DNA of 64,000 nt, taken from a virus. The translations under genes and the position numbers were made by a program. Below, one piece after another: positions 23,159-40,982 of the stretch. The stretch spans positions 1 through 64,000 of IMG/VR virus record IMGVR_UViG_3300017743_000002; one strand, written 5' to 3'. The notes below the pieces were generated by a model. It was not told the DNA's origin and ran no database searches. It was given only the letters and a program-made list of their open reading frames with translations. How positions within the stretch are numbered: position 1 is the first letter of the stretch; each line of letters begins with the position of its first letter.

Positions 23159-23186
23159 TTTCTTTTATTTTTATTCACTTTTTTTA

Positions 23187-26100
23187 TTAATCCTGCAGTG
23201 CTAATGAGAATGGTGTTACAAGTGAGAATAACGATTTAGAGAATGTTCTACCCTCTAATGTACCAGAAGCTTGTTTAATAACAAGACCTCCACCAATTCT
23301 AAAGTCACCAAGTTCGTTACCAGAAGTAAAGAATACTCTACCTCCACCAATTTCAGTAATTTCCTTATCAGGATCAGGTACACCATCACCACCTTGGTTA
23401 GGAGGTAATGCTTTATAAGTTACACCAGCACCAGCGTAAGAGAAATCATGTCCAGTTGTAATAATTAAAGAACCAAACTCTTCAACAGGCGCTTGTCTAG
23501 CAGCGAATTGGAATTGAGTTCTTAAATATCTATTAGTTTCTGCAGTTTCTTTCTTTTGTTCGTTAATAACAACAGCTGCACTTCCATACACTCCATTGTA
23601 ATACGATTCAGCCGCTCTGATACTTCTCTCATTACCACCATAGATGATATCAGTTGCGATAGCATCTAAAATAAATCCAGTATCTCTATAACATTTTTCT
23701 TCATTGTAATCAAAAGTAGGGAATGCCGCATTTGTGTACGATATTGCCTTACCTTGTAATACTTTTTTCTCCGCTCTAAGTGCATTAGCTCCATTTTTAT
23801 TTAATAAGAATGGGAATACTAATTGTTGTTGTTTGATTATCTTTTCAGCCAACCCTTTTGAGAAATCAATACCATCAGTTGTTTGTGGTTTTTGTTCCGT
23901 AGTTGCGATTGAAGGAATATAGTAGTAGAATGTACCTGCTTGTACTGCTCTAGCATTACCACCATATGTTAAATCAGTTGCTACTGCATCTATGATGTAT
24001 CCTAAATCTCTACTACAACTAACTTCGTTGTATTCAAACTCACTCCAAGACGAACTTAGATAAGCGATTGTTTCTTTTTGTATAAATGTTGTGTTATCTC
24101 TTAATAACTGAACACCATTTTTAATTTCAGCTGATGGATTTATGTATTCTAAGTTTTGAACTACATTTTGTGAAGTTCCATTAGCAAATCTAATTCCATC
24201 AATTGTTGGGTCTAACTGATTAGCTTCTGATGGAGTACCACCCTTAGTTGCTCTTGATGGGTATCTCCAATAGTATAATCCAGCTACTCTACTTCTTTCA
24301 TTTCCACCGTAAACTAAATCAGTTACAGCTGCATCAATTATATATCCAGTATCTCTTCTACATTTATCTTCGTTGTAAGTTACATTACTCCAAGAAGATG
24401 ATATAAATTCGATAGTTTCATTTTGTACGAAACTTCTATTGTTTCTTAGTAATTCAGCCGATGCAGATACTTCAGATGTTGGTGAAACGAATATTGTATT
24501 TTCTAATACTTTTTCAGCCAATCTAGCAGAGTAGTTAATTCCATCAATTGTTTGATTTAATTGTCCGTTTGGATTAGTTTGGTAATTAACAGTTGCATCT
24601 GATGGGTATAAGTAATAGTACTCACCATTTACTCTACCTCTTTCATTTCCACCATATAAGAAATCCGTTGCTACACCATTTAAGATATATCCAGTATCTC
24701 TCTTACATTTATCTTCATTGTAATCAAATGTACTCCAAGAAGATGAGATGTAAGCGATTACTTCATTCTGAATAAATTCTTTATTATCTAAAAGAACTTT
24801 ATTTCCAGCTAATCTCTCAGCCGATGCCGTTACGAATATTTCGTTTTGTACTAATTTACTTGCCACATCACCCGCGTACTTAATACCCGTTGTAGTTGGT
24901 TCTAATTGAGTTGATGTTGCTGATGAAGGATATTTGTAGTAGTATTCTCCTGCAATCTTACTTCTTTGGTTACCACCATAAAGTAAATCAGTAGATACTG
25001 CATCTAAAATATGTCCAACATCTCTCATACAAGTTGCTTCTACATAATCAAACCCTTCCCAAGAAGAACTTAGGTAAGAAATTGATTCAGATTGAATAAA
25101 CTCTCTATTATTTCTAATTAATTCAACTGATGCTGATATTTGAGCTGATGGGAAATCAAATGTTACACCTTTAACGATTTGTTCAGTTAATTGTGATGCG
25201 TAATTGATACCATCAATAGTTTGTTGAGCTTGAGAACCAGTTCCATTAGCTTCAGATGGGAATTGATAGTAGAACTTAGCGTTTACTACTGATTGAGATA
25301 CGATTCCATATCTTAAATCTTCTGCTACACCATTTACAATAAATCCAACATCTCTTCTACACTTAACATCATCATAATCAAATCCTATCCACGAAGAAGA
25401 AATATATTCTACAACTTCATTTTGTATAAATGGTACACTTTCAGTAATCAATCCATATGTAGTTAGAATATCAGAACCAGTTAATAATGAACCATATTCA
25501 AATGCAGGTTGAACAACACTTACTGAATTTTGCTCAGTTCTAACAAATGTGTGAACTGATTGTGGTAAATGTTTAATTGCTCCATTTGATGCTGATACGA
25601 ATGTGTGAACTGATTGAGGTAGATGTTTTACAGCGTTTGTTGATGCAGATACAAATGTGTGTACCGAACCAGAAGCACTTCCACCATCTCCTACATTTAT
25701 TGTAAATGTACCAGTTTGTCTTTCTAATCCATCATTTGTAGCCGATACAAATGTATGTGTGTTTGTATATGAGGAAGAACCTATGTTTATATCAAACGTA
25801 TTTGTAGTTACATTAGAAATTTCTAACCATCTTCCATTTGGATAATCTATTCCAGCTCTTGGATATGATTTTTCAACAGTATCACCATCCAATACACAAG
25901 TATAAGTTAGAGAATTATTATCTAATTTGATATAATCACCATTACTAAAATTATGATTAGCTATTGTTATAGTAACATCACCAGTTGATGCGTTATAAGG
26001 AGCATCAGTTACAGTATGTGATGTAGTTCCAACTGAAGTAATAACTATTGATTGTTCAGCGTATGGGTCAGAACCACTTCTTGGATAAGAATGAACAGAT

Positions 26101-29100
26101 GTATCACCATCTTGGTCACAAGTAAATGCGAATGATTCATTTTCTAATACTACACTTCTACCAACACCTATACCATGCTGTCCAACAGTTACAATCATAT
26201 CACCACTTAATGCGTTGTAATCAACATCCGATGGTGTAAAGAATTTATTTGGACCCGAAATACCAACATTTACAGTCATTGTAGTATCAGTAATATCCGT
26301 TATCTTCATTGAACGTCCAGCGAATGGGTCAATACCAACTCTTGGATATGATTTAACTGATTGATTATTATCCATATCACAAGTGAAAGCAAATGATTCA
26401 ATATCTAAAATGATACCTTCACCAATACTTAAACTATGACTTTCAACAGTCATTACGAATTCACCCGTTGCTGGGTCATAAGATGCAGTTGTTGGATTAA
26501 ATTCTACATTAGGTCCAGACGCTCCTACGTTAACAGTTATAGTATTATTGGTTTTTGAAAGAATTTCTAATTCATTATTGTAAGCAGGTTGTCCAACTGA
26601 AGGTAATTTATCTTCAGTTTTGTTGTTATCCATATCACAAGTAAATGTGAACGATTCAGGTGATAAGTATATACCCTCACCCTCAGTATAAGAATGACTT
26701 TCAATTGTTAATACAAACTCACCATTTGATGGGTCATAAGTTGCGTTAGTTGGAGTTGAATCTGCTTTTCCATTAGCTATTGCATCTGATACAATTGCGA
26801 ATGAAGATGAAATTGTGTTAAAAATAGTAACATCAGTTATACTACTACCAGTTGCTGGTGAGAATGAAGTTACTTTAATTCCATTATCAGTATTCAAACT
26901 TCCTGTTTGAACAAATAATGTTTCTTTGTTAACTAATTTTTCAATTAAATCTTTAGTATAGATTAATGCATCAGTAGTTTCATCTAATTGATTACCAGTT
27001 GCTTCAGATGGGAATCTATAATAGAATTCACCAGCAGTTAATGCTCTTTGGTTTCCACCATATCTTAAATCAGTAGCAACAGCATCAATTATGAATCCAG
27101 TATCTCTACTACAACTTAATTCATTGTATTCAAAGTTTGGATATTTAGCGTTTACGAATGCTACAGTTTCAGCTTGTAAGAATTCTCTATTTTCTCTAAT
27201 TGTATCATAAACAAATTCAACTTCATTTGATGCAGTTTGGAAAACAGCTCCACTTACTATTTCAGTTACTATATTTTGTACATAATCAATAGCAGTTACA
27301 GTTGGGTCTTTTTGTCTATTTTCATTTGGTACACCACCACTAATAGCTGCTGATGGGAATCTGTAATAATAATCTCCAGCATTCACACTTCTTTCATTTC
27401 CACCATATAATAAATCAGTAGAAACTGCATCTATAATATGAGTAATATCTCTTTTACAAGTTATTTCATTATAAGTAAATCCATCCCACGAAGATGATAA
27501 GAATTCAATTGTTTCATTTTGAATAAATTCTCTATTATTTCTAATCAATTCATAAGAACCACTAACTACTGCGGATGCAGTTTGGAACGTATATCCTCTT
27601 ACAATACTTTCTGCTAATCTACCAGCATAATTAATACCATCTAAAGTTTGTTGTAATTGTGCACCTTGTGCCTGAGATGGGAAATCATAGTAGAATTTAC
27701 CATTGAATATAGATGCAGAATTTGCGTTATACAACATATCTTCAGCTGCCCCACTTATAATTCCTCCTATATCTCTACTACACTTACTTTCATCATATGA
27801 TGCAGTTGACCAAGAAGATGATAAATAAGCAATTGATTCACTTTGAATAAATCCAATATTTTCTTTTAATAAGTTATATGCTGCAATTGTTGTTGGTGAT
27901 TCTGATGGAGCTCCATACTCAACAACAGTTGGTAATGAACCAGTTCCATTTTTAACAATATTAGTTACAATTGCAATTGATGATGAAATTAATCTTTGTT
28001 GTAATCTATCTCCAAATGATTCAGATGTAAATTGAACTGCGTCAGTAACTTTAATTAAGTTATCAACATCAGAGTTATTTTTAACAACGTTTGGTTTAAC
28101 ACCCAATCCATTTTGTAATATATTTTCAATTATACCAACTGATGTATTTACTTTATTAATTTCAATTGATGAACCTACAATAGAAGAAGTAAACTGATTT
28201 GCTGAAGTTACTTTAATATTGTTTTCAGCATTAGTTACTAATTTTGGTAAAATACTTATTGAGTTATTTTCAGTTCTAACAAAAGTATGACCTGCCTGAG
28301 GTAAATGTTTAACTGCTCCTTTAGATGCAGATACAAATGTATGTAATGATTGAGGTTCATGTTTAACAGCGTTTGCTGAAGCTGATACGAATGTATGTAA
28401 TGAACCTGAAGCGCTTCCACCATCACCTACATTTATTGTAAATGTACCAGTTTGTCTCTCAATACCATTTGCTGCAGCTGATATAAATTTGTGTTCTCCT
28501 ATATATGATGATGCACCAATATTAATATTAAATGTATTCGTAGTTACATTAGAAATTTCTAGCCATCTTCCAGATGGGTAATCATAAGCAGGTCTTGGAT
28601 ATGATTTAGTAGTTGTATTATCATCTAATACACAAGTATAAGTTAATGCGTTATCAGCAACTTTAACATAATCACCATTACTAAATCCGTGATTGGCGAT
28701 TGTTAGTGTTACTACACCTGTTACTGAGTTGTATGGAGCGTTTGTTGGAGTATGCGATGTTGTACCTACCGAAGTAATCACAATTGATTGTTCAGCGTAT
28801 GGGTCAGAACCACTTCTTGGATAAGAGTGAGTTGTAGCATCTCCATCTTGGTCACAAGTGAACGCAAAAGATTCATTTTCTAATACTACACTTCTTCCTA
28901 CTCCTAAACCAAATGATTCAGTAACAGTTAGAGTCATATCACCACTTAAAGCATCATATGATGCAGTAGTTGGTGTAAAGTATTTATTAGGACCTGATAT
29001 ACCTACATTTACCGTCATTGTATTTGAAGTTACCGAAGTAAGTTTCATTGAACGTCCAGCGAATGGGTCAATTCCAAATCTAGGATAAGATTTAGTTGAT

Positions 29101-32100
29101 TGGTTGTTATCCATATCACAAGTAAATGCAAATGAACCAGTACTTAATACTATACCTTCTCCAACACTTAATGTGTGAGTTCCAGTTGTAATTACGAAAT
29201 CACCATTAGCAGGGTCATAAGTTGCATTAGTTGGAGTCCATTCAATATCAGGATCCGATGCTCCTACATTTACAGTTATAGTATCAGTAGTTTTTGCTGT
29301 TATCTCTAATTTATTAGTATAAGCAGGTTGTCCAACTGAAGGTAATTTGTGTTCAGTTCTGTTCCCATCCATCGTACAAGTAAATGTAAACGATTCTGGT
29401 CTTATATAAATTTCATCTCCAATATCCAAAGTATGATTTGGAATAGTAACTACAAAGTTTCCATTTGATGGGTCATAAGTTGCTGTTGTTGGAGTAAATG
29501 AACCTGTACCATTTTCTATGATATTAATAATTTCTCCAAATGATGAACTTACAATACCAAATTCAGTATCAGTTACATAAGTACCACTAGCAGTTACATA
29601 AGAACCAGTTGTTAGTTGTTGTGGAGTATCTAATGTATCATCAAACCACTTAGCTAATGCAAATGGTGTATCATCGGTTCCGAATCTAATAATATCATTA
29701 ATAAACCCTACACTACGAGTTACAAATGCTGATTCAACTTCACTACCACTTAGTGAAGAAGTAAATTGAGATGTATCATTAATTTTAATTAATCCTTCAA
29801 TATTTTCAGTTAATATAGGTAAAGTACTTACTGAATCTCGTTGAGTTCTAATAAATGTATGAGCTGATTGAGGTAAATGTTTCAATGCCCCATTGGAAGC
29901 TGATACAAAAGTATGAACTGATTGAGGTTCATGTTTAACTGCTCTATTGGATGCTGATACGAATGTATGTAATGAACCAGAAGCACTTCCACCATCTCCT
30001 ACATTAATTGTAAACGTTCCATCTTGTCTCTTCAATCCATTAGTAGTTGCTGATACAAATGTATGTGAACCTACATATGGTGAAGAACCTATATTGATAT
30101 CAAATGTGTTAGTTGTTACATTTGAAATTTCTAACCATCTTCCACTTGGATAATCGTAATTAGGTCTTGGGTAAGATTTTGTAGTTATATTTTTATCTAA
30201 TACACAAGTATAAGTTAGAGAATTATCATCTAATTTTATGTAATCTCCATTATTGAAATTGTGGTTAGCTATTGTAATAGTTACATCACCAGTTGCAGAA
30301 TCATATGGTGCATCGGTTACACTATGAGAAGTAGTTCCAACTGAAGTGATTTTTATTGATTGCTCAGCGTATGGGTCAGAACCACTTCTTGGATAAGAAT
30401 GAGTAGTTACGTTACTATCCATATCACAAGTGAATGCAAATGATTCGTTTTCTAACACCACACTTCTACCAACACCCAATCCGAATGATTCAGTAACAGT
30501 TAGAGTCATATCTCCACTTAGAGAATTGTAAGAAGCAGATACAGGTGTGAAATATTTATTCGGACCTGATACTCCTACATTAAATGTCATTGTAGTATCA
30601 GTTACAGCCGTAAGAGGAAGTGAACGTACTGAATACGGGTCAATACCAACTCTTGGGTAGGATTTAACTGATTGGTCGTTATCCATATCACAAGTAAATG
30701 CGAATGATTCAGGTGACATTACTACACCTTCACCAATACTTAAACTATGACTTGCTACAGTTACAACAAATTCCCCAGTTAATGGGTCATAAGATGCAGT
30801 TGATGGATTGTATTCTACATTTGGACCCGATTTACCAACGTTTACAGTTATAGTATCTGATGTTGTTGATTTAATTGTTAATCTATTATCATAAGCAGGT
30901 TGTCCAATTGATGGAAGTTTGTGCTCAGTTCTATTTCCATCCATATCACAAGTGAATACAAATGATTCAGGTTTTAGATAGATACTATCACCACTATGTA
31001 AATTATGTTTAGGTACAGTCATTAAGAAATCACCATTAGCAGGGTCATAAGTTGCTGTTTTAGGTGTGAATGATTCAATACCTGTTTTTATAATTCCAGT
31101 TACAATATCATATGATTCACTAACTTCAGTTTGATATGAACCACTCAATGCAATTGATGAAGATACTGAATTAAATGATGTTACTTTTATATTTCCATCA
31201 CTATTAGAAACTTTAGATGGAGTTTTAGTTATTAATTGAGATAAAACACTTATTGAGTTATTTTGAGTTCTAACAAAAGTATGACCTGCCTGAGGTAGGT
31301 GTTTTACTGCTCCATTAGAAGCTGATACAAAAGTATGAACTGATTGTGGTAAATGTTTTACAGCGTTTATTGATGCTGATACAAATGTATGTATTGAGCC
31401 ACTTGCACTTCCACCATCTCCAACGTTTATTGTAAATGTTCCAGTTTGTCTTTCTAAACCATTTGTTGTAGCTGATACAAAAGTATGAGCTGATGTGTAA
31501 GATGATGAACCAATGTTAATATCGAAAGTATTAGTTGTTACATTAGAAATTTCTAACCATCTTCCAGATGGGTAATCATAACCAGGTCTTGGATATGATT
31601 TCTCAACACTATTACCATCTAATATACAAGTATAGGTTAGAGAATTATCAGAAAGTTTGATATAATCTCCATTACTAAATCCATGTCCTGTGATTGTTAT
31701 AGTAACATCACCAGTAGATGCATCATAAGGTGCATTAGTTATAGTATGGGATGTAGTTCCAACTGAATTTATTACAATTGATTGTTCCGCATATGGGTCT
31801 GAACCTAATCTTGGGTAAGAGTGAACAGATGTATCACCATCTTGGTCACAAGTGAAAGCAAAAGATTCGTTTTCTAATACTACACTTCTTCCTACTCCTA
31901 ATCCGTGCTGTCCAACAGTTACAACCATATCACCACTCAATGCGTTGTAATCAACATCAGTTGGTGTAAATAATTTATTCGGAGCCGATACTCCAACATT
32001 AACAGTCATTGTTGTATCAGTAACATCAGTTATAATCATTGAACGACCTGCAAATGGGTCTATTCCAAATCGAGGGTAAGATTTAACAGATTGGTTATTG

Positions 32101-35100
32101 TCCATATCACAAGTGAATGCAAATGAACCAGTATCTAATACGATACCCTCACCAATACTTAAACTATGATTACCAGTTGTGATTACAAATTCTCCAGTTG
32201 CTGGGTCATAAGATGCAGAAGAAGGTGTGAACTCTACATTAGGACCTGATTTACCAACATCCACAGTTATAGTATCTTCGGTTACCGATTTAACTTTTAA
32301 TTTATTATTATATGCTGGTTGTCCAATTGATGGTAATTTATGTTCCGTTCTATTATTATCCATTGTACAAGTGAATACAAACGATTCTGGTCTTATACAA
32401 ATTTCATCCCCAACATCTAAACCATGTTTAGAAATAGTAACTACAAAGTCTCCATTTGATGGGTCATAAGTTGCTGTTGTTGGAGTAAATGTTTTTTGTG
32501 TAATTATATCTCTAACTAAATTCTTAGCATATACAATACCCTCAATAGTTTCTACTTTTTGTACGGTAGTTGCTTCAGATGGGAATAAGTAATAAAATTC
32601 TCCACTCTTAATACTTCGTTGATTACCACCCCATAAGAAATCGGTTGCAACACCATCTAAGATGTGTCCAACATCTCTTCTACACTTTTCTCTATTATAT
32701 GTAAAGAATGGGAATGTGTAATCAATGTATTCAGTTACTTCTTTTTGAATTAAAGTTCTATTATCTCTAATCGTATTCCAAATACTTAATTTAGTTTCTG
32801 AAGGTTGTACTAATACTACATTCTGAATTAATTTTTGAACTAAGTTAGCTGCATGTACGATACCATCGATAGTTTGTGTTTTTTGAACACTTGTTGCTTC
32901 TGATGGATATAAGTAATAGTACTCACCAGCAATAACACTTCTTTCATTTCCACCATATCTTAAATCGGTAGATACAGCATCTAAGATGTGTCCAACATCT
33001 CTACTACATTTAGCTTCATCATAATCAAATCCAACCCAAGAAGATGAAATGTAAGCAATTACTTCAGCTTGAACCAATTCTCTATTTTGTTCTATCGTTT
33101 GATATAATCCTTCTCTTTCTACTGATGGATTTACTAATATAGTATTACTCATTACCTTATCAGATAATCTTTGAGCATGAACTATACCATCAACAGTTTG
33201 GTCTAATTGTGAACCTTGTGCTTGTGATGGATATTTGTAATAGAAATCTCCAGCAATTATACTTCTCTCATTTCCACCATACAATAAATCAGTAATTGCT
33301 GCATCTATTATGTATCCAGTATCTCTCTTACATTTTACATCATCATAATCAGCTGCATTCCAAGAAGATGAAACATATTCAATTACTTCATTTTGGATTA
33401 AATCTCTATTTTCTAATACTAAGTTATAAGCATTTACTTTATCTGAAGATAGTGGTGTAAATACTGCTCCACTTACTACTTTTTGTGCAACTTCACCAGC
33501 ATATTCAATACCATCTAAAGTTGGGAATAGTTGAGAACCAGTTGCTTCAGATGGGAATTTATAATAGAATATACCAGCATTAATTGTTCTTTCGTTACCA
33601 CCATAAACAATATCAGTAATTGATGCATCTAAGATGTGTACGATATCTCTTTTACAAGTTTCTTCTGGATAATCAAAATCACTCCAAGAAGCTGATAGGA
33701 ATGCAATTCCCTCTTCTTTAATAAACTCTTTATTATTGTTTATAATTGTTTGTGTATCTAATCTATCTTGAACTGGATTTGAGAATGTTACATTCGATGC
33801 TATTTTTTGTGCTACCCTACTTGCGTATCGAATTCCATCAATCGTTTGACTCAATTGTGAACCTTGTGCTTGTGATGGATACTCTAAGTAGAACTTACCA
33901 TTAAAGATAGATGCTGAGTAAACATTGTGAATTAAATCTTCAGCTGCTCCACTAACAATACCAGCAACATCTCTCATACATTTATCTTCATCATATGATG
34001 CAGTTGACCAAGAAGATGATAAGTATGCTATTGTTTCTTCTTTTATGAAATCAATATTTGATTTTAATAAGTTGTAAGCTGCAACAGTTGATGAAGCAGT
34101 TACCTCACTACCATACAATGATGATGATTCATAAGAACCACTTCCAAATTCTATAATCTTAGTTACAATATCAAATGCCCCAGAAATAAATTCTATATCT
34201 GCAGCTGATGCTGAGATAGAAGATGTAGTAAACTGAGTTTCAGTTGTTACTGCGATTGCTTCTTCAGTATTATCAATTTGTGGAGGAATTACAGTTACCG
34301 AATCATTTATAGTTCTAACAAATGTGTGAACTGATTGTGGTAGATGTTTAACTGCTCCATAAGATGCTGATACGAATGTGTGAACTGATTGTGGTTCATG
34401 CTTAACTGCATTTGTTGATGCAGATACAAATGTATGGATTGAACCACTTGCACTTCCACCATCACCTACATTAATTGTAAATGTACCATCTTGTCTTTTT
34501 ATTCCATTAGTTGTAGCAGATACAAATGTATGTGCTCCAGTGTAAGAAGATGAACCTATATTAATATCAAATGTATTAGTTGTTACATTTGAAATTTGTA
34601 ACCATCTTCCAGATGGAGAATCATATCCAGCTCTTGGATAAGATTTCTGAGTTGTGTTTCCATCTAATACACAAGTATAAGTTAATGCACCATCATCAAC
34701 TTTTATATAATCATTATTAGAGAATCCATGATTAGAGATTGTGAGTGTTACGATACCAGTTGTTGGATTGTATGGTGCATTTGTTGGAGTATGTGATGTA
34801 GTTCCAACTGAAATAATTTTTATCGATTGTTCTGCATATGGGTCTGAACCACTTCTTGGGTAAGAGTGAGTTGTAGAATCACCATCTTGGTCACAAGTAA
34901 ATGCGAATGATTCATTTTCTAATACTACACTTCTACTTACACCCAATCCATGTTGACCTACTGTCAATACCATTTCCCCAGTCAATGCATTATAATTAAC
35001 ATCAGATGGAGTAAAATATTTATTAGGACCTGAGATACCAACATTTACAGTCATTGTATTATTGGTAACATCAGTTATAATCATTGAACGACCAGCGTAA

Positions 35101-38100
35101 GGGTCTATACCCAATCTAGGGTAAGATTTAACTGATTGGTCATTATCCATATCACAAGTGAAAGCAAATGATTCAGTATCTAATATAATTCCCTCACCAA
35201 CACTTAAAGTATGTGTACCAGTTGTTATTACAAATTCTCCAGTTGCTGGGTCATAAGATGCGTTAGTTGGATTAAATTGTACATTAGGACCTGATTTGCC
35301 AACATTTACAGTTACAGTATTATTTGTTACAGATTTAATTCCTAATTTAGTATTGTAAGCAGGTTGACCAACTGAAGGTAATTTGTGTTCAGTTTTGTTA
35401 TCATCCATTTCACAAGTAAATGTGAATGATTCTGGTTTTAGATAGATACTATCAGTTTTTCTAAATTTGTGATTTGGAATAGTCATTACAAAATCACCAT
35501 CAGCAGGGTCATAAGTTGCTGTTGTTGGAGTAGAACCAGTTCCAAATTCTATAATATCTAATACAGTTTCAAATGAAGATGATAATTTAGATATAAGAGT
35601 TTCTGAACCAACTAATGAAGAAGTAAATTGAGTTGCATCACTTCTTTTAACTAAACCTTCAATGTTTTTAGTTAGAATTGGTAAAGTACTTACTGAATCT
35701 TTGTTTGTTCTAACAAAAGTATGAACTGATTGAGGTAAGTGTTTAATAGCTTTTCTCGATGCAGATACAAATGTGTGAACTGATTGTGGTTCATGCTTCA
35801 CAGCGTTTGATGAAGCTGATACAAATGTATGTAAAGAGTTTGATGCCGTTCCACCATCTCCTACATTTATTGTAAATGTACCAGTTTGCCTTCTTATACC
35901 ACCAGTAGTTGCCGATACAAATGTATGTGCTGATTTATATGATGATGCTCCAATGTTAATATCAAATGTATTAGTTGTTACATTTGAAATCTCTAACCAT
36001 CTTCCACTTGGATAATCATATCCAGCTCTTGGATAAGATTTTTGAACAGTGTTTCCATCCAATACACAAGTATAGATTAAAGCTCCATTATCAACCTTAA
36101 CATAATCTCCATTACTAAATCCATGTCCAGCAATAGTTAAAGTTACAATTCCAGTTGATGCGTTATAAGGAGCATCAGTTGGTGTGTGTTGAGTATTTCC
36201 AACTGATTTAATTTCTATCGATTTACCAGCATATGGGTCAGAACCTGGTCTTGGATACGAATGTGTTGTAGCATCTGAATCTTGGTCACAAGTAAATGCG
36301 AATGATTCATCTTTTAATACTACACTTCTTCCAACTCCTAAACCATGCTGTCCAACAGTTACAATCATATCACCAGTCAATGCATTATAAGATGCAGATG
36401 TTGGAGTAAAGTATTTATTTGGACCCGATGCTCCAACGTTAAACGTCATTGTTGTATCAGTTACCGAAGTAATTGGAATAGAACGAACTGCAAATGGGTC
36501 AATACCAACTCTTGGATATGATTTAACCGCCTGGTCATTATCCATATCACAAGTGAATGCAAATGCTTCTGGTGAAAGTATAATACCTTCTCCAACACTT
36601 AAAGTATGTTTACCAACAGTTGCAACGAAATTTCCAGTTAATGGGTCATAACTTGCGTTAGTTGGATTGAATTCTATATTCGGACCTGATTTACCAACGT
36701 TTACACTTATGGTATTATCAGTTATTGAATTTATTGTTAATTGTTTATTGTATGCGGGTTGTCCAACTGAAGGTAATTTATGCTCAGTTCTATTACCATC
36801 CATATCACAAGTGAATACGAATGATTCTGGTCTTAAATAAATTCTATCATTAACATCTAAATCATGTTGAGAAATAGTCATTACAAACTCACCATCAGCT
36901 GGATTATACGTTGCTGTTGTTGGTGTATAAGAATCTATACCACTTTTTAGAATCCCAACTACCGTACTGAATCCTCCACTTACTATATTTCTATCAGAAA
37001 CACTAGCATCTAAGGATGAAGTATATTGTACACCATCAGTTACTTTTATATTATTTTTAGTGTTTACTACTTTTTCAAATTCACCTTTAGTTGGAACATA
37101 AACAAATTCCTGCTCAGATGATAATGGTAAACTATCTACAATGTTTATTACACCACTAGCCGAAACATTTGTTGGATTCACATAGAAAAGTGTATCAGGT
37201 GTATCTACTAAAGGAGTAAATGTTATCGTACCAAATGTAATACCATTATTTATTAAACCAATACTTTCATATACATCATATGTAGTACCAGCAGTTCTTT
37301 TGGTTTTAATTAAGAATGGTGCATTAATATTAATATCTTCAAAACCTAAATCATTAACAGAGAAAGTGTACATTTCATTTCTAACCAATGTTAACGTTGG
37401 GTCTTTTTTAGAACCCAAGAAAGAACCAGTATCTTCTCCACCTAATCTCCATCCTTCTCTACCATCAAAGTATTTTAATTGATTATCATTAATATAAAAT
37501 GCAGTTGAATCGTTTGGTAAAGAAACAACTTCAAAATAAGATGAAGAATTAGCTGAACCTGATATTTCCTTACTTCCACTAATTCCATACTCAACAATAT
37601 CAATTACAGTTCTAAATGATTCTGAAATTTCTGATGAAATTGGAGTTGATGCTGATATAGAAGATGTATATTGTGAATTGTTATTAAACTTAATTCCATC
37701 TTTTACATTTGAAACTTCTACTATATCATTTGGTAATGTTGTACCAATTGTAGTTGTTATTAAGTTATCACCATAAGAATTTTTAGGAATACCAACTTGA
37801 GAAATAGGTAAACCATTTGGTGCAAATCCAACAACTATATCTGAAGTTATTGAGCTTCCACTTTCTATAATCGTAGTTACTATTTCGAATGATTGAGAAA
37901 TACTACTAAGTTCACTATTACTAGCAGTTATCGATGAGGTTATTAATGTTGTACTACTAACTAACTTTGGCTCTTCTAATGTCCATTCTAAATTAGGTGT
38001 ATTACCAGCAATAGCTGCAAGTAATGAATCTTCACCTTGCTTAATAATATCTTCAACTAATCCAAATGAAGAACTAACTTTTACTTTTTCAGTTTCACTA

Positions 38101-40982
38101 CCAGATACCAAAGATGATGAGAATGGTAGAATATTACCAACTTTAACTCTTGAATATGTGTTATCAATTACCGCTGGAGCTTCTACTATTTCATTTACAA
38201 TTACTTTATCAATAAATGATTTAGCGTAAGAAATACCATCAACAGTTTCATTTAGTTGGTCTCCATTTACTTTCGAAGGAATTTCACCATAGTATAATCC
38301 AGCTCTAACTGATTTTTGATTACCACCATAATATAAATCAGTTGCAACTGCATCTACAATAAATCCAGTATCTCTTTTACATTTATCTCTTAGGTAAACT
38401 AAGTTAGGAAACTGAGTATCAATAAAGTTTACAGTTTCTTCTTGAATTAAACTTCTATTTTCAACAATTAAATCGTATGTTGATTGTATGATTGCTGATG
38501 CCGTTACGAATGTATCTTTAACAACTAATTTTTTAGATAAATCTCTTGCCCACTCTATACCATCTAATGTTGGTAATAGTTGTGTTGTTGTAGCAGTTGA
38601 TGGGTATAGGTAATAGAACTCACCAGCTATTCTACTTCGTTCATTACCACCATATCTTAAATCAGTTGAAACTGCATCTATAATATGTCCAACATCTCTT
38701 TTACATTTATCTTCATCATAATCAAAGTTTCTCCAAGAAGATGATACATAAGAAATTACCTGATTTTGTATAAATAATTTATTATTTGTTAATAAATCAT
38801 ATCCGTTTATAACATTTACAGATGGCTCTACATAGGTTACATCACCAATCACCCTTTCTGCTATTCCACCAGCATATCTAATAGCATCTAATGTTTGTTG
38901 TTTTTGTGATGATGTTGCTTCTGATGGATATAGGTAATAGAAATTTCCATTTAAAACGGATTCTTCATTACCACCATATAATAAGTCGTGAGCTGCACCA
39001 CTTACAATATACCCTAAATCTCTTTTACAAGTTGTTTCATTATAATCAAATGTACTCCAAGATGAAGAAAGATATGCTATTGTTTCTTCTTGAATAAATG
39101 ATAAATTACCTAATAATGCATTGTATCCATTTTGATAATCAATTGATGGATTTTCAAATGAAGAACTTTGAATAATACTAGGTGCATAATCTGGACCTAA
39201 TTCTAAAATTCTATAAACAGTTGCAAATGAAGAACTAATCTTATTTCTTACTTCTGCACTTGAAGAAATATCAGTAATAAATTGAGGTGTTTCAGTTATT
39301 TTTATATTACCAGCATTTGATGATGTAATTGGTGGTAATGGATTATCAGTATCATCCAGTCCAAACTCTACTATTCGTAAAACAGAATTATAATTTCTAT
39401 TAATTATATCAACTTCAGTTTGAGTTGTTGCATCTGAAGTTATATAAGGAGTTTCATTTCCAACTTTTACTAAACCATCTATATTATCTACTAAAGTATA
39501 ACTAGCAGTTGCTCTAGCTCCAATTTCTAACGTTTCTTTTACTTTATCAAATCTATCTTCGATTATTGCTAATTCAGTAGAGGTTGCTGATGTTGAACCT
39601 GTTATTTGATTTCCAAATGATACATTCCAAACCGAACCAGTGTTATATCCTCTTGTTGCTGATTTAGCTAATAAAGATGGAATATTACTTATACCACTTG
39701 ATACAATGTTTGAAACTAATCTATATTCTGATTTTGCCTGTTCTGCAACTTTATCAGATGAATTATTACTACTAAATTGTTGTAATTCATCAGTTACTTT
39801 GATACCATCATTTGTATTTGGTACAAATTCAGGTATTGCAGTTAACCCATCCTCAATTGTATCAATAATAATTGTATAACCATCTCTTACTCTATTAAAT
39901 GCTTCTAAGTTACCACCACTACCAGTAATAAACCTAGACCCACTAGCATACATACCAAAATCACCAAACGATGTGTTTGAGTTTAGAAGTACTGCTTGTC
40001 CACCATCTAATACCTTTACAGAATATGCTGAGAAGTTTGTAAAGAAGGATACCAACTGAATAAATCCTCTACCTACAACTTGACAACCCACACCATTAGG
40101 TGCGATTTGTGTATATGCATCCAATACCATTGAAGCAAGAGGTGAATCAGGATGGATTATATTTCCATCTACATTCAATCCACCACCACCAGCAGGAATA
40201 TCCTCATATGCTTCTAAGAATGAGTTCTCCTGATTCGAAATCATCGAACAGTTCTGAACATAAGGAGATGTTGTAATAAATGAGTTTGGTGCGAATGCAA
40301 TTGCGAAACCACTTCGAGAGTTATCTACTGATGGAAATACTCTCAATCCAGCAAATGTCATCTCTGAAAGGTAACATCCACTATTTACCCAAAATAAATC
40401 TTCGTTTTCGTTTTTAGCTACAATCTTAGTTACCCTTAAACCAGCTCCCCATACAGTTGTATTCTTTGGAAGTTCAATTGGGTTTTCTTCTAAGTAAGTT
40501 CCAGCAGATACTTCAATTGCAAAACCAGTAAATAAAGAACCAGTTGGTAACCCAAATCTACCATCATCTCCCGCAGTTGCTAATTCAGCAGCTCTTTTTA
40601 CAGTTCTTAATGGAAATTGTGGTGTTCTACCATCATTTGTATCATCACCAGAAGTTGAAGATACATAAATAGTAGCATCCATTGCTCCGAAATCTTCAGG
40701 TTTGATTCCACCAAATAATCTTGAATCTAACGATTCTAATGAAACGGATGATGTTAATTCTAATGCTTGGTCACCAACTACATTAAGAGGTCCATCAATA
40801 GTAAGTGAACCACTTAATTCAACTGAACCAGTTATAGTAGATTTTTCAGAAGGGTCTGAACCTAAAGTAAAACTTTGAGATACAAGTAAAGAGCCAGATA
40901 TAGATACACCTTGCGCAAAGGAGGTATCCCTAATAAAATCCTGTATCTCTTCTACCTGTTTTCTGGATATTAATCTTGCCAT
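23187..40982 (-). CDS. Giant repeat-containing virion protein (5931 aa): N-terminal pectin-lyase-like beta-helix, 17 CxRD helical repeats, 6 nested beta cassettes
   Basis: 'IYVS...GDDTNDG..P..PLRTVKRA' and 'SPYVQNCS' near the N-terminus; repeat families are visible in the translation; single 17.8-kb uninterrupted ORF. Confidence 0.9.
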   Translation of the reverse strand: MARLISRKQVEEIQDFIRDTSFAQGVSISGSLLVSQSFTLGSDPSEKSTITGSVELSGSLTIDGPLNVVGDQALELTSSVSLESLDSRLFGGIKPEDFGAMDATIYVSSTSGDDTNDGRTPQFPLRTVKRAAELATAGDDGRFGLPTGSLFTGFAIEVSAGTYLEENPIELPKNTTVWGAGLRVTKIVAKNENEDLFWVNSGCYLSEMTFAGLRVFPSVDNSRSGFAIAFAPNSFITTSPYVQNCSMISNQENSFLEAYEDIPAGGGGLNVDGNIIHPDSPLASMVLDAYTQIAPNGVGCQVVGRGFIQLVSFFTNFSAYSVKVLDGGQAVLLNSNTSFGDFGMYASGSRFITGSGGNLEAFNRVRDGYTIIIDTIEDGLTAIPEFVPNTNDGIKVTDELQQFSSNNSSDKVAEQAKSEYRLVSNIVSSGISNIPSLLAKSATRGYNTGSVWNVSFGNQITGSTSATSTELAIIEDRFDKVKETLEIGARATASYTLVDNIDGLVKVGNETPYITSDATTQTEVDIINRNYNSVLRIVEFGLDDTDNPLPPITSSNAGNIKITETPQFITDISSSAEVRNKISSSFATVYRILELGPDYAPSIIQSSSFENPSIDYQNGYNALLGNLSFIQEETIAYLSSSWSTFDYNETTCKRDLGYIVSGAAHDLLYGGNEESVLNGNFYYLYPSEATSSQKQQTLDAIRYAGGIAERVIGDVTYVEPSVNVINGYDLLTNNKLFIQNQVISYVSSSWRNFDYDEDKCKRDVGHIIDAVSTDLRYGGNERSRIAGEFYYLYPSTATTTQLLPTLDGIEWARDLSKKLVVKDTFVTASAIIQSTYDLIVENRSLIQEETVNFIDTQFPNLVYLRDKCKRDTGFIVDAVATDLYYGGNQKSVRAGLYYGEIPSKVNGDQLNETVDGISYAKSFIDKVIVNEIVEAPAVIDNTYSRVKVGNILPFSSSLVSGSETEKVKVSSSFGLVEDIIKQGEDSLLAAIAGNTPNLEWTLEEPKLVSSTTLITSSITASNSELSSISQSFEIVTTIIESGSSITSDIVVGFAPNGLPISQVGIPKNSYGDNLITTTIGTTLPNDIVEVSNVKDGIKFNNNSQYTSSISASTPISSEISESFRTVIDIVEYGISGSKEISGSANSSSYFEVVSLPNDSTAFYINDNQLKYFDGREGWRLGGEDTGSFLGSKKDPTLTLVRNEMYTFSVNDLGFEDININAPFLIKTKRTAGTTYDVYESIGLINNGITFGTITFTPLVDTPDTLFYVNPTNVSASGVINIVDSLPLSSEQEFVYVPTKGEFEKVVNTKNNIKVTDGVQYTSSLDASVSDRNIVSGGFSTVVGILKSGIDSYTPTTATYNPADGEFVMTISQHDLDVNDRIYLRPESFVFTCDMDGNRTEHKLPSVGQPAYNKQLTINSITDNTISVNVGKSGPNIEFNPTNASYDPLTGNFVATVGKHTLSVGEGIILSPEAFAFTCDMDNDQAVKSYPRVGIDPFAVRSIPITSVTDTTMTFNVGASGPNKYFTPTSASYNALTGDMIVTVGQHGLGVGRSVVLKDESFAFTCDQDSDATTHSYPRPGSDPYAGKSIEIKSVGNTQHTPTDAPYNASTGIVTLTIAGHGFSNGDYVKVDNGALIYTCVLDGNTVQKSYPRAGYDYPSGRWLEISNVTTNTFDINIGASSYKSAHTFVSATTGGIRRQTGTFTINVGDGGTASNSLHTFVSASSNAVKHEPQSVHTFVSASRKAIKHLPQSVHTFVRTNKDSVSTLPILTKNIEGLVKRSDATQFTSSLVGSETLISKLSSSFETVLDIIEFGTGSTPTTATYDPADGDFVMTIPNHKFRKTDSIYLKPESFTFTCEMDDNKTEHKLPSVGQPAYNTKLGIKSVTNNTVTVNVGKSGPNVQFNPTNASYDPATGEFVITTGTHTLSVGEGIILDTESFAFTCDMDNDQSVKSYPRLGIDPYAGRSMIITDVTNNTMTVNVGISGPNKYFTPSDVNYNALTGEMVLTVGQHGLGVSRSVVLENESFAFTCDQDGDSTTHSYPRSGSDPYAEQSIKIISVGTTSHTPTNAPYNPTTGIVTLTISNHGFSNNDYIKVDDGALTYTCVLDGNTTQKSYPRAGYDSPSGRWLQISNVTTNTFDINIGSSSYTGAHTFVSATTNGIKRQDGTFTINVGDGGSASGSIHTFVSASTNAVKHEPQSVHTFVSASYGAVKHLPQSVHTFVRTINDSVTVIPPQIDNTEEAIAVTTETQFTTSSISASAADIEFISGAFDIVTKIIEFGSGSYESSSLYGSEVTASSTVAAYNLLKSNIDFIKEETIAYLSSSWSTASYDEDKCMRDVAGIVSGAAEDLIHNVYSASIFNGKFYLEYPSQAQGSQLSQTIDGIRYASRVAQKIASNVTFSNPVQDRLDTQTIINNNKEFIKEEGIAFLSASWSDFDYPEETCKRDIVHILDASITDIVYGGNERTINAGIFYYKFPSEATGSQLFPTLDGIEYAGEVAQKVVSGAVFTPLSSDKVNAYNLVLENRDLIQNEVIEYVSSSWNAADYDDVKCKRDTGYIIDAAITDLLYGGNERSIIAGDFYYKYPSQAQGSQLDQTVDGIVHAQRLSDKVMSNTILVNPSVEREGLYQTIEQNRELVQAEVIAYISSSWVGFDYDEAKCSRDVGHILDAVSTDLRYGGNERSVIAGEYYYLYPSEATSVQKTQTIDGIVHAANLVQKLIQNVVLVQPSETKLSIWNTIRDNRTLIQKEVTEYIDYTFPFFTYNREKCRRDVGHILDGVATDFLWGGNQRSIKSGEFYYLFPSEATTVQKVETIEGIVYAKNLVRDIITQKTFTPTTATYDPSNGDFVVTISKHGLDVGDEICIRPESFVFTCTMDNNRTEHKLPSIGQPAYNNKLKVKSVTEDTITVDVGKSGPNVEFTPSSASYDPATGEFVITTGNHSLSIGEGIVLDTGSFAFTCDMDNNQSVKSYPRFGIDPFAGRSMIITDVTDTTMTVNVGVSAPNKLFTPTDVDYNALSGDMVVTVGQHGLGVGRSVVLENESFAFTCDQDGDTSVHSYPRLGSDPYAEQSIVINSVGTTSHTITNAPYDASTGDVTITITGHGFSNGDYIKLSDNSLTYTCILDGNSVEKSYPRPGYDYPSGRWLEISNVTTNTFDINIGSSSYTSAHTFVSATTNGLERQTGTFTINVGDGGSASGSIHTFVSASINAVKHLPQSVHTFVSASNGAVKHLPQAGHTFVRTQNNSISVLSQLITKTPSKVSNSDGNIKVTSFNSVSSSIALSGSYQTEVSESYDIVTGIIKTGIESFTPKTATYDPANGDFLMTVPKHNLHSGDSIYLKPESFVFTCDMDGNRTEHKLPSIGQPAYDNRLTIKSTTSDTITVNVGKSGPNVEYNPSTASYDPLTGEFVVTVASHSLSIGEGVVMSPESFAFTCDMDNDQSVKSYPRVGIDPYSVRSLPLTAVTDTTMTFNVGVSGPNKYFTPVSASYNSLSGDMTLTVTESFGLGVGRSVVLENESFAFTCDMDSNVTTHSYPRSGSDPYAEQSIKITSVGTTSHSVTDAPYDSATGDVTITIANHNFNNGDYIKLDDNSLTYTCVLDKNITTKSYPRPNYDYPSGRWLEISNVTTNTFDINIGSSPYVGSHTFVSATTNGLKRQDGTFTINVGDGGSASGSLHTFVSASNRAVKHEPQSVHTFVSASNGALKHLPQSAHTFIRTQRDSVSTLPILTENIEGLIKINDTSQFTSSLSGSEVESAFVTRSVGFINDIIRFGTDDTPFALAKWFDDTLDTPQQLTTGSYVTASGTYVTDTEFGIVSSSFGEIINIIENGTGSFTPTTATYDPSNGNFVVTIPNHTLDIGDEIYIRPESFTFTCTMDGNRTEHKLPSVGQPAYTNKLEITAKTTDTITVNVGASDPDIEWTPTNATYDPANGDFVITTGTHTLSVGEGIVLSTGSFAFTCDMDNNQSTKSYPRFGIDPFAGRSMKLTSVTSNTMTVNVGISGPNKYFTPTTASYDALSGDMTLTVTESFGLGVGRSVVLENESFAFTCDQDGDATTHSYPRSGSDPYAEQSIVITSVGTTSHTPTNAPYNSVTGVVTLTIANHGFSNGDYVKVADNALTYTCVLDDNTTTKSYPRPAYDYPSGRWLEISNVTTNTFNINIGASSYIGEHKFISAAANGIERQTGTFTINVGDGGSASGSLHTFVSASANAVKHEPQSLHTFVSASKGAVKHLPQAGHTFVRTENNSISILPKLVTNAENNIKVTSANQFTSSIVGSSIEINKVNTSVGIIENILQNGLGVKPNVVKNNSDVDNLIKVTDAVQFTSESFGDRLQQRLISSSIAIVTNIVKNGTGSLPTVVEYGAPSESPTTIAAYNLLKENIGFIQSESIAYLSSSWSTASYDESKCSRDIGGIISGAAEDMLYNANSASIFNGKFYYDFPSQAQGAQLQQTLDGINYAGRLAESIVRGYTFQTASAVVSGSYELIRNNREFIQNETIEFLSSSWDGFTYNEITCKRDITHIIDAVSTDLLYGGNERSVNAGDYYYRFPSAAISGGVPNENRQKDPTVTAIDYVQNIVTEIVSGAVFQTASNEVEFVYDTIRENREFLQAETVAFVNAKYPNFEYNELSCSRDTGFIIDAVATDLRYGGNQRALTAGEFYYRFPSEATGNQLDETTDALIYTKDLIEKLVNKETLFVQTGSLNTDNGIKVTSFSPATGSSITDVTIFNTISSSFAIVSDAIANGKADSTPTNATYDPSNGEFVLTIESHSYTEGEGIYLSPESFTFTCDMDNNKTEDKLPSVGQPAYNNELEILSKTNNTITVNVGASGPNVEFNPTTASYDPATGEFVMTVESHSLSIGEGIILDIESFAFTCDMDNNQSVKSYPRVGIDPFAGRSMKITDITDTTMTVNVGISGPNKFFTPSDVDYNALSGDMIVTVGQHGIGVGRSVVLENESFAFTCDQDGDTSVHSYPRSGSDPYAEQSIVITSVGTTSHTVTDAPYNASTGDVTITIANHNFSNGDYIKLDNNSLTYTCVLDGDTVEKSYPRAGIDYPNGRWLEISNVTTNTFDINIGSSSYTNTHTFVSATNDGLERQTGTFTINVGDGGSASGSVHTFVSASTNAVKHLPQSVHTFVSASNGAIKHLPQSVHTFVRTEQNSVSVVQPAFEYGSLLTGSDILTTYGLITESVPFIQNEVVEYISSSWIGFDYDDVKCRRDVGFIVNGVAEDLRYGIVSQSVVNAKFYYQFPSEANGTGSQAQQTIDGINYASQLTEQIVKGVTFDFPSAQISASVELIRNNREFIQSESISYLSSSWEGFDYVEATCMRDVGHILDAVSTDLLYGGNQRSKIAGEYYYKYPSSATSTQLEPTTTGIKYAGDVASKLVQNEIFVTASAERLAGNKVLLDNKEFIQNEVIAYISSSWSTFDYNEDKCKRDTGYILNGVATDFLYGGNERGRVNGEYYYLYPSDATVNYQTNPNGQLNQTIDGINYSARLAEKVLENTIFVSPTSEVSASAELLRNNRSFVQNETIEFISSSWSNVTYNEDKCRRDTGYIIDAAVTDLVYGGNERSRVAGLYYWRYPSRATKGGTPSEANQLDPTIDGIRFANGTSQNVVQNLEYINPSAEIKNGVQLLRDNTTFIQKETIAYLSSSWSEFEYNEVSCSRDLGYIIDAVATDLTYGGNARAVQAGTFYYYIPSIATTEQKPQTTDGIDFSKGLAEKIIKQQQLVFPFLLNKNGANALRAEKKVLQGKAISYTNAAFPTFDYNEEKCYRDTGFILDAIATDIIYGGNERSIRAAESYYNGVYGSAAVVINEQKKETAETNRYLRTQFQFAARQAPVEEFGSLIITTGHDFSYAGAGVTYKALPPNQGGDGVPDPDKEITEIGGGRVFFTSGNELGDFRIGGGLVIKQASGTLEGRTFSKSLFSLVTPFSLALQD
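23510..39130 (-). repeat. 17 helical repeats of about 85-95 aa (N...I..E......Y...KCxRDxGxIxDAVxxDLxYGGN) in 4 blocks
   Basis: Blocks: about 38200-39130 (3 copies), 32500-34085 (5), 26930-27885 (3) and 23510-25460 (6). Confidence 0.9.
25518..36930 (-). repeat. Six cassettes of about 1.24 kb (about 410 aa), each with four TPTxAxY...FTCxxD...HTFVSA domains
   Basis: Cassettes at about 35690-36930, 34290-35535, 31250-32490, 29828-31070, 28255-29498 and 25518-26760. DNA-level identity is visible (e.g. recurrent gggtcagaaccacttcttggataaga). Confidence 0.9.

Follow-up and report, generated by a model that had tools for sequence, protein, structure and literature searches.

In many phycobiliproteins the cysteine that holds the bilin sits in a C-x-R-D motif, and the same motif (CXRD) is found in two groups of bilin biosynthesis-associated globins, BBAG-1 and BBAG-3, in which attachment of the bilin is lyase-free (PMC10151467). 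Here we describe a domain with this motif, which we call the CxRD domain, that is repeated 17 times in one giant gene of a virus. The window, by which we mean the whole stretch of DNA that was analysed, is the first 64 kb (64,000 nucleotides) of a 102,380-bp IMG/VR viral contig (IMGVR_UViG_3300017743_000002; CheckV completeness estimate 51%), and the gene is an open reading frame (ORF) of 5931 aa, running in a single frame along the minus strand (23187..40982). We consider it very probable that the repeats are shortened, tandem relatives of the bilin-binding globins, mounted on a giant fibre-type phage protein; that the domains also carry a covalent bilin on the virion is a proposition which, judged from alignments and models, seems to us evenly balanced. 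We found no paper describing the CxRD phage domain among open-access papers and preprints.

Seventeen repeats and their motif

A regular-expression search finds exactly 17 C-x-R-D motifs in the giant ORF, with a period of 108–115 aa inside four arrays, and the 17 copies align over 108 columns at 36–59% identity to the first copy. Five positions (C41, R43, D44, D55 and Y71) are invariant across all of them, and of the 45 cysteines of the ORF all but four occupy conserved positions within repeats, the four being three in the N-terminal domain and a single one at aa 2862. Much of the original prediction, which was made from the sequence letters alone, is borne out by these counts: it had proposed 17 repeats, all keeping C-x-R-D, between 23510 and 39130 (the arrays measure nt 23490–39149), in a giant phage virion protein, and the ORF does match giant tail-fibre and baseplate families in PHROGs. 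The phycocyanin alpha string that it quoted has the same reading in cpcA genes fetched from cyanobacterial genomes, and the spacing that it drew from that string is true of the repeat consensus, with G at D+2, a small hydrophobic residue at D+8, L at D+12 and GG at D+15/16. The further likeness that it saw to an N-x3-I-x12-P helix of the beta chain is present in those copies that read '...FP', for example aa 828–935.

The predicted fold

We modelled one copy (aa 2619–2726) twice with AlphaFold2 (AF2), using as the alignment either the 17 own copies, which gave a predicted local distance difference test score (pLDDT) of 84.3 and a predicted template modelling score (pTM) of 0.77, or 127 diverse copies from viral contigs, which gave 92.2 and 0.84. 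Both models have the same five helices, at 3–14, 16–30, 38–58, 62–73 and 83/84–101. When either model is compared with the PDB by Foldseek, nearly all of the top ~50 matches are phycobiliproteins, with query-normalised TM scores of 0.74–0.79 (phycoerythrin beta chains, 8u0f) and weak E-values of 0.07–0.6; among the best is also 8u0f_C (0.74–0.76), labelled 'bacterial fluorescent protein'.

An exhaustive VIA-align search over 48,161 PDB representatives gives the same picture with both models. With the better one, bilin-binding globins hold seven of the top eight ranks, and these matches include allophycocyanin (8or7_A, Z 12.0, root-mean-square deviation (rmsd) 2.5 A over 103 aligned residues; 8imk_G, Z 11.6, 2.5 A over 102), photocobilin (8j2y_B, Z 11.8, 2.7 A over 100), the ApcE bilin domain (4xxi_A, Z 11.5, 2.4 A over 97) and phycoerythrin (5aqd_M, Z 11.1, 2.1 A over 107 of 108). 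Lower ranks are taken by colicin pore domains, heme globin-coupled sensors (Z 8.6–9.2) and RsbR. The part of the phycobiliprotein chain that the model covers is residues ~33–142, which is the B-E-F-G core. In both predicted models, then, the globin core lies nearest to known bilin-binding globins, at Z-values in a range that can be reached by chance, and the globin fold claimed at the outset is the one that the models adopt, with phycobiliproteins, ApcE and photocobilins as the nearest solved structures. As far as predicted structures go, a globin-like core is strongly supported and a specific kinship with the bilin-binding globins moderately so.

Where the cysteine falls

Our reference set for profile comparison consisted of cpcA/cpcB-type genes from cyanobacterial genomes, fetched by a degenerate pattern scan (85 proteins). 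When the profile contained the 17 own copies only, hhalign aligned a 24-column stretch at the motif (P 2.4e-5 to 1e-4). With 135 diverse copies, taken from the best 150 matches of the protein search described below, the alignment grew to 93–106 columns, placing domain positions 1–106 on cpcA ~34–141 (probability 93.8%, P 1.7e-7), and 127 diverse copies against the 85 proteins gave a probability of 94.3% and P 1.1e-7. The register was the same every time, with C41 on Cys84, R43 on Arg86 and D44 on Asp87; in addition, the first helices align with the helix-B 'N-x3-I' pattern and Y36 with the Tyr of the B-E loop. Control profiles, one reversed and 20 column-shuffled, all gave P of at least 0.036. 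This register, together with invariance in the 17 copies, points to a Cys84-type cysteine within C-x-R-D on helix E, which is the equivalence that the original prediction had drawn.

A large family with a constrained triad

The domain family has no model in Pfam, and it is large: a search of 1.84 billion representative proteins gives 1290 at E <= 1e-3. Our copy statistics come from the best 150 of these 1290 matches, which are 504–6382 aa long (most exceed 1000 aa) and hold up to 36 domain copies each. Across their 1167 near-full copies, C41 is kept in 96%, R43 in 96%, D44 in 98%, D55 in 100%, Y71 in 98% and T86 in 91%, while overall identity among the more than 1000 copies is ~28%. R43 is also lost in 25 of the 51 copies that have no Cys, as against 17 of the 1116 that have one, and D55 is kept throughout. 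The C, R and D of the motif thus tend to be lost together while D55 stays, and the triad therefore behaves as one functional unit, separate from the determinants of the fold.

We also looked at an internal thioester (Cys-Gln) of the kind found in adhesin TED domains, and rejected it: the fold consists of helices only, and position 82 alternates, with Q in 59% of copies and E in 37%.

Genomic company

A degenerate DNA motif scan of IMG/VR gave 119 loci, and the domain was present in 119 of 119. Four of the genomes selected in this way through the domain are at least 90% complete; two of them (G012, 328 kb, and G034, 364 kb) have a cassette of adjacent genes for heme oxygenase (HO) and ferredoxin-dependent bilin reductase (FDBR) and are without psbA, and the other two (G015 and G036) have psbA. 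When contigs of at least 100 kb were picked only for a relative of the G012/G034-type FDBR, the domain was found in nine of 11. It was found in one of 14 FDBR-selected fragments of 60–91 kb, a scarcity that fits the distance between the two loci, which is at least 100 kb in G012, G034 and a third genome, G073. Searches for FDBR and psbA in 42 domain-bearing fragments (12–52% complete) gave no matches, a negative that is uninformative because the cassette lies at least 100 kb from the domain gene in complete genomes.

For the lineage of this phage itself, we compared 17 contigs of at least 48 kb whose capsid is 54–78% identical to its own. The domain and a bilin reductase each occur in just one of these, and it is the same one: G073 (252.6 kb, 100% complete), which has the closest capsid (78% identical). 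It encodes 24 copies of the domain in one 4835-aa frame, with a weak match in a 289-aa frame just downstream, and its bilin reductase gene overlaps its heme oxygenase gene, the pair lying between thyA (thymidylate synthase) and phage groES/groEL (locus G073:242482–246033, with the pair at 905–2079 of it); psbA is absent. With just 28% identity between the FDBR of G073 and that of the jumbo phages, the two cassettes belong to separate lineages. The link between the domain and a bilin supply recurs in at least three phage lineages. Domain and HO/FDBR share a genome (G073, G012, G034 and the nine of 11 large FDBR contigs) in non-adjacent positions, and the present contig has neither enzyme gene; a likeness to the genomic association of the BBAGs is possible. 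The exceptions run in one direction: bilin genes occur in places without the domain, and among the genomes examined there is no complete domain-bearing one that lacks a bilin source, each near-complete one having either psbA or an HO and FDBR cassette of its own.

The original prediction had connected the repeats with the heme oxygenase and bilin reductase genes of marine phages, which have no clear acceptor. What stands of this is the co-occurrence of domain and cassette in genomes; what fails is any wish to see in the domain 'the' acceptor for phage PcyX/PebS, as Pelagibacter phage Mosig has a reductase and no such domain. The bilin of Mosig therefore has some other destination. In Mosig (L250 243–4570), genes for ferrochelatase, four 2OG-Fe(II) oxygenases, heme oxygenase and a PcyX-like reductase make up one block directly upstream of the neck genes.

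In Synechococcus phage S-CAM1 a CpeT-like lyase gene lies ~1 kb upstream of the giant domain gene (L002 3737–4273, the latter from 5338 onward), and G036 shows the same arrangement (6766–7269, domain gene from ~8384). CpeT could be a lyase for CxRD domains. P-SSM2 is without cpeT (PMC2984593). We dropped a wider association between CpeT and the domain, as large contigs were too few: among 10 psbA contigs, one has the domain and one has CpeT, and they are not the same contig.

A lead from light-dependent adsorption

With four repeats as queries, tblastn found the domain in 67 cultured-phage records (43 Synechococcus, 21 'Cyanophage', 2 Prochlorococcus and 1 'Marine'), and S-PM2 p091 and the 'short tail fiber' of S-CAM1, at 22–25% identity, keep C-x-R-D. 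In cultured phages, megablast found no match to 17 kb of the window. P-HM2 has the domain in two proteins, by annotation a 'baseplate wedge subunit' (PHM2_086, expanded and gp7-like, lying between gp6 and gp8) and a 'tail fiber protein' of 3677 aa. The phage described here is not a kyanovirus; its capsid is closest, at ~53%, to those of Flavobacterium phage immuto, Microcystis phage Mel-JY01 and a 484-kb uncultured phage.

Several of the cultured cyanophages have been studied with respect to light. P-HM1 and P-HM2 show no adsorption in the dark, and P-SSM2 adsorbs in the dark (Liu et al., PMC6628666). The light-dependent adsorption of S-PM2 is independent of host photosynthesis, going by the account of Jia et al. 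2010 that PMC6628666 gives. The domain is present in S-PM2, P-HM1 and P-HM2 and absent from P-SSM2, so that the three phages with the domain require light and the one without it does not. This is a lead: the comparison was made after the hypothesis had been formed, comprises three or four data points that share ancestry and gives no evidence of mechanism. One might speculate that the domains are virion-borne bilin photoreceptors, in which light would change the conformation of globin domains on the baseplate or fibres and so permit adsorption, which is our favoured guess at a role and at the same time unlikely to be right.

How the pieces might fit together

In the mechanism that we favour, the repeats would belong to the lineage of bilin-binding globins that comprises phycobiliproteins, BBAGs and photoglobins, with a core of five helices that would match B, E, F and G. 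The triad would lie in the helix-E equivalent, where Cys41 would form the thioether to the bilin, Arg43 would meet a propionate and Asp44 the pyrrole nitrogens. What each domain would most likely hold is a covalently attached bilin, the domains being strung along a fibre- or baseplate-type virion protein, and attachment may well be independent of a lyase, by analogy with BBAG-1 and BBAG-3. In the course of infection, a heme oxygenase and a ferredoxin-dependent bilin reductase, both phage-encoded, would supply the bilin; for the present phage we infer that the cassette lies on the missing half of the genome, because the closest complete relative, G073, has one. A particle built in this way would display tens of chromophores on its adsorption apparatus.

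A good deal weighs against this reading, and we set it out here together. At the level of sequence, the best score with Pfam PF00502 is 11.1 bits (E 0.4, for a six-repeat stretch) against a gathering score of 22.2, and PF00502 has zero matches among the 17 single repeats and in a six-frame search of the contig. A profile of the 17 copies run with HMMER against PDB sequences found no phycobiliprotein, its best match being proteasome subunits at E 0.54, which we take as noise. When the six motif columns (40–45) are masked, the hhalign register is unchanged and P rises to 0.02 (0.0028 in global mode), and with the whole motif helix (columns 38–61) masked P is 0.14; the sequence evidence is real, yet it is mostly carried by the motif helix. 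D55, the most conserved residue of all, has no phycobiliprotein counterpart. A search of the ESM Atlas gave no usable match.

At the level of structure, helical models can reach Z ~12–13 through common packing alone, as the search tool itself warns. The domain has ~108 aa where phycobiliproteins have 160–175, and of their full helix set (X, Y, A, B, E, F, G, H) the models show a five-helix core only, with X, Y, A and H uncovered; the absence of the X-Y helices argues, as far as the models can be trusted, against assembly of the phycobiliprotein type. The B-E loop, which in phycobiliproteins covers the chromophore, is ~10 residues shorter.

At the level of genomes, the window has no bilin-synthesis genes, just as the original prediction said, and neither has the rest of this 51%-complete 102-kb contig. 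Co-occurrence rests on about three lineages, and so on few independent events. Mosig has both synthesis genes and no CxRD domain, and P-SSM2, which presumably carries PebS and HO1, has no CxRD domain either; the domain is found in one of 10 psbA-bearing contigs. No S-type (CpeS-type) lyase was found in the eight phages that have both FDBR and the domain, and the T-type lyase CpeT is absent from G012 and G034, the two genomes which that search covered.

What else could the domains be?

The alternative that survives best is that a phage captured a phycobiliprotein- or BBAG-like globin and turned it into a rigid block for lengthening or stiffening fibres, with no chromophore, in which the triad is retained because it serves folding or contacts between subunits (an Arg-Asp salt bridge, a Cys at the trimer axis, a disulfide). 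We think this possible, if somewhat doubtful. Long tandem arrays, here with as many as 36 domains in one protein and with repeat modules of other kinds set between them, are what one expects of fibre spacers, the helices through which phycobiliproteins assemble are missing, and D55, Y71 and T86 are conserved as well as the triad or better although phycobiliproteins have nothing to match them. A copy without its Cys in a small ORF downstream of the giant gene, the rarity of the domain among psbA-bearing contigs and the Mosig reductase all sit comfortably with a block of this kind. However, a structural cysteine is rarely kept at 96% across more than 1000 copies of ~28% identity, and there would be little reason for C, R and D to be lost jointly while the fold-defining D55 stays. 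Nor does a spacer explain why, in this phage's own lineage, HO and FDBR occur in the domain-bearing genome only, or why the domain turns up in most large FDBR contigs.

A second possibility, which strikes us as decidedly improbable, keeps the fold and changes the ligand to heme, non-covalent biliverdin, a chlorophyll breakdown product or a host surface molecule, or has the Cys serve as a redox or metal site. Next in structural likeness come heme-binding globin-coupled sensors, a heme oxygenase gene by itself would yield biliverdin, and the choice of ligand does vary in this lineage, given that BBAG-2 and photoglobins bind biliverdin and have no CXRD (PMC10151467). However, among the columns conserved at 50% or more there is no His that could serve as a proximal ligand, the triad that is conserved is the one specific to covalent attachment of a bilin, and the gene that co-occurs is a bilin reductase, beyond heme oxygenase.

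That the resemblance is pure chance, an unrelated five-helix bundle with C-x-R-D whose globin-like packing in AlphaFold is merely common, is very unlikely in our view: the Foldseek E-values are weak, HMMER finds nothing, one helix carries most of the hhalign score and helical models often reach Z ~13 by arrangement alone, but bilin-binding globins would hardly fill seven of the top eight places among 48,161 chains, over 97–107 of 108 residues and with two models, nor would the register survive masking of the motif, the upstream helix and the B-E loop Tyr fall into line and the genomic tie to bilin synthesis arise by coincidence.

The gene, its parts and its neighbours

Every gene on the contig is on the minus strand. 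Structural genes for terminase, portal, major capsid and adaptor lie at 43–57 kb, and several giant ORFs then follow downstream. The gene that carries the CxRD arrays (Table 1) matches phrog_5342 (4.8e-177), phrog_701 (6.9e-83) and phrog_4527 (3.7e-50), and the PHROG families concerned are giant 'tail fiber', 'short tail fiber', 'baseplate wedge' and 'virion structural' proteins. It shares with the proteins of PHROG 5342/4527/701 both a significant profile match and a position in the structural module, and its product is probably part of the virion.

Table 1. Features of the giant ORF and of the ORF that follows it
Feature	Position (nt)	Strand	Basis
Giant ORF, tail-fibre / baseplate-type virion protein (probable)	23187..40982	-	PHROG matches; place downstream of terminase, portal, major capsid and adaptor
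N-terminal region, aa 1-611, fibre-type, possibly beta-helix	39150..40982	-	phrog_29288 5.8e-34; phrog_17885 'tail fiber' 2.3e-30
CxRD array 1, 3 domains, aa 612-935	38178..39149	-	Regular expression and copy alignment
Two ~465-aa modules	34278..36920	-	Motif map; phrog_5342, phrog_701, phrog_1276
CxRD array 2, 5 domains, aa 2295-2834	32481..34100	-	Regular expression and alignment; contains the modelled copy
Modelled CxRD copy (array 2), aa 2619-2726	32805-33128	-	AF2 models, fold searches
Three further ~465-aa modules of the same kind	28233..32480	-	Motif map
CxRD array 3, 3 domains, aa 4361-4691	26910..27902	-	Regular expression and copy alignment
Sixth ~465-aa module of the same kind	25503..26750	-	Motif map
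CxRD array 4, 6 domains, aa 5168-5831	23490..25481	-	Regular expression and copy alignment; the most divergent copy is the last
C-terminal ~100 aa, common to C-termini of phage tail-fibre families	23187..23489	-	phrog_3442, phrog_17885
Downstream 286-aa ORF, one degenerate domain copy (aa 77-180)	22284..23144	-	hmmsearch E 3.5e-13

In the N-terminal region there is also a weak Pfam match of the pectate-lyase-like kind (E 0.0066). The six ~465-aa modules, whose copies are near-identical, interleave with the CxRD arrays, and each consists of four ~87-aa 'TATYDP...FxFTCDMD' units, with one conserved Cys per unit, followed by HTFVSAS (HTFV) repeats. The C-terminal ~100 aa match the very ends of two profiles, phrog_3442 (1.3e-27, positions 3876–3966 of 3967) and phrog_17885 (2e-19, positions 911–1002 of 1002).

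Just downstream, the 286-aa ORF has F-F-E-G where the other copies have C-x-R-D, and it is cysteine-free over its whole length; the orthologous 289-aa frame in G073 also matches the domain profile. Among the roles conceivable for this ORF are those of a naturally occurring 'apo' variant, of a capping subunit and of an assembly factor. Beyond it, a second giant ORF (11503–22260 on the minus strand, 3585 aa) is without the CxRD domain in a profile search. Its GC content is locally 0.43–0.47 (especially at 12000–16000) as against ~0.33 elsewhere, and it has many overlapping spurious frames and long Gly-Ser/Thr triplet tracts, the latter already pointed out in the original prediction.

Does the assembly hold?

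A gene of this size and repetitiveness invites the suspicion of an assembly artefact, which is countered by its presence at ~100% identity in three DNA metagenome runs, some of them possibly the window's own source sample, which between them cover the whole gene, though no contig spans the modules. Contigs from these runs contain arrays 1, 2 and 4 nearly whole and array 3 for the most part; for array 4, a separate metagenome contig spans 23100–25565 with zero differing letters and a single 1-base gap, which is intergenic. The short-read contigs break solely inside the ~465-aa modules, because the copies of these are near-identical, and the count of six modules is that of the present assembly. 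All three DNA runs have an extra T after position 23178, in the 42 nt that separate the giant ORF from the next ORF downstream, and the frames are unaffected.

More widely, 14 studies (2014–2025) of marine, seawater and viral metagenomes contain near-identical DNA, and at least eight of them contain at least 95% of the sampled words. Contigs from RNA libraries lie on 23 of 30 bins at 90–95% identity, which is no proof that this phage is transcribed.

Why it might matter

Whatever its function, a large family for which Pfam has no model would extend the lineage of phycobiliproteins and BBAGs into viruses, and this bears on the origin of the phycobiliproteins themselves. If the domains are bilin-bound, the virions of abundant marine phages would be pigmented, with consequences for their survival under ultraviolet and visible light and for the optical reading of viral fractions, and, for these lineages at any rate, the puzzling phage genes for heme oxygenase, PcyA/PcyX/PebS and CpeT would be matched by an acceptor that the phage itself encodes. 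If, further, the photoreceptor idea were true, it would account for a long-known trait of cyanomyoviruses, adsorption that depends on light (in S-PM2 independently of host photosynthesis), it would give a purpose to HO and bilin reductase genes in phages without psbA, and it would be the first light sensor built into a virus particle. With bilin-bound domains, the question of light-dependent adsorption would become directly testable in cultured phages, as S-PM2, P-HM1 and P-HM2 have the domain in gp7-like baseplate or fibre proteins and P-SSM2 is without it.

Comparison with known systems

Among described proteins, the phycobiliproteins and ApcE (PF00502) share much with the phage domain: the predicted core superposes on theirs at Z 10–12 and rmsd 2.1–3.1 A over ~100 residues, and C-x-R-D in the helix-E equivalent, G at +2, GG at +15/16 and the helix-B 'N-x3-I' are common to both. 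Phycobiliproteins differ in that they are free subunits which build rings and rods, whereas the phage domain comes in tandem arrays (up to 36) in giant structural proteins, falls below the PF00502 threshold and has D55, Y71 and T86 as conserved residues of its own. In addition, no lyases were seen for it, apart from CpeT near the domain gene in some cyanophages.

BBAG-1 and BBAG-3 (Rockwell, Martin & Lagarias 2023, PMC10151467) have in common with it a non-photosynthetic context, CXRD and perhaps an association with genomes that encode heme oxygenase and a PcyA-family reductase, and their lyase-independent attachment is the mechanism that we envisage for the phage domain. Compared by description, the BBAGs are single-domain, soluble proteins encoded beside the reductase gene, whereas the phage domains are repeats of a probable virion protein, at least 100 kb from the cassette in G012, G034 and G073. 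The photoglobins, or photocobilins (8j2y, 8j2w), give the second-best structural match and show that bilin-binding globins can be used for light sensing; they differ in being fused to a B12 domain, in binding biliverdin without CXRD (PMC10151467) and in an identity of only 6–12%. Comparable in setting are the giant proteins of T4-like cyanophages (S-PM2 p091, S-CAM1 SXBG_00073, P-HM2 PHM2_086 and PHM2_096), which have the same domain, the same C-x-R-D and annotations that place them in the adsorption apparatus, with fewer detectable copies per protein, identities of 22–37% and an annotation that is silent on globins and bilins alike.

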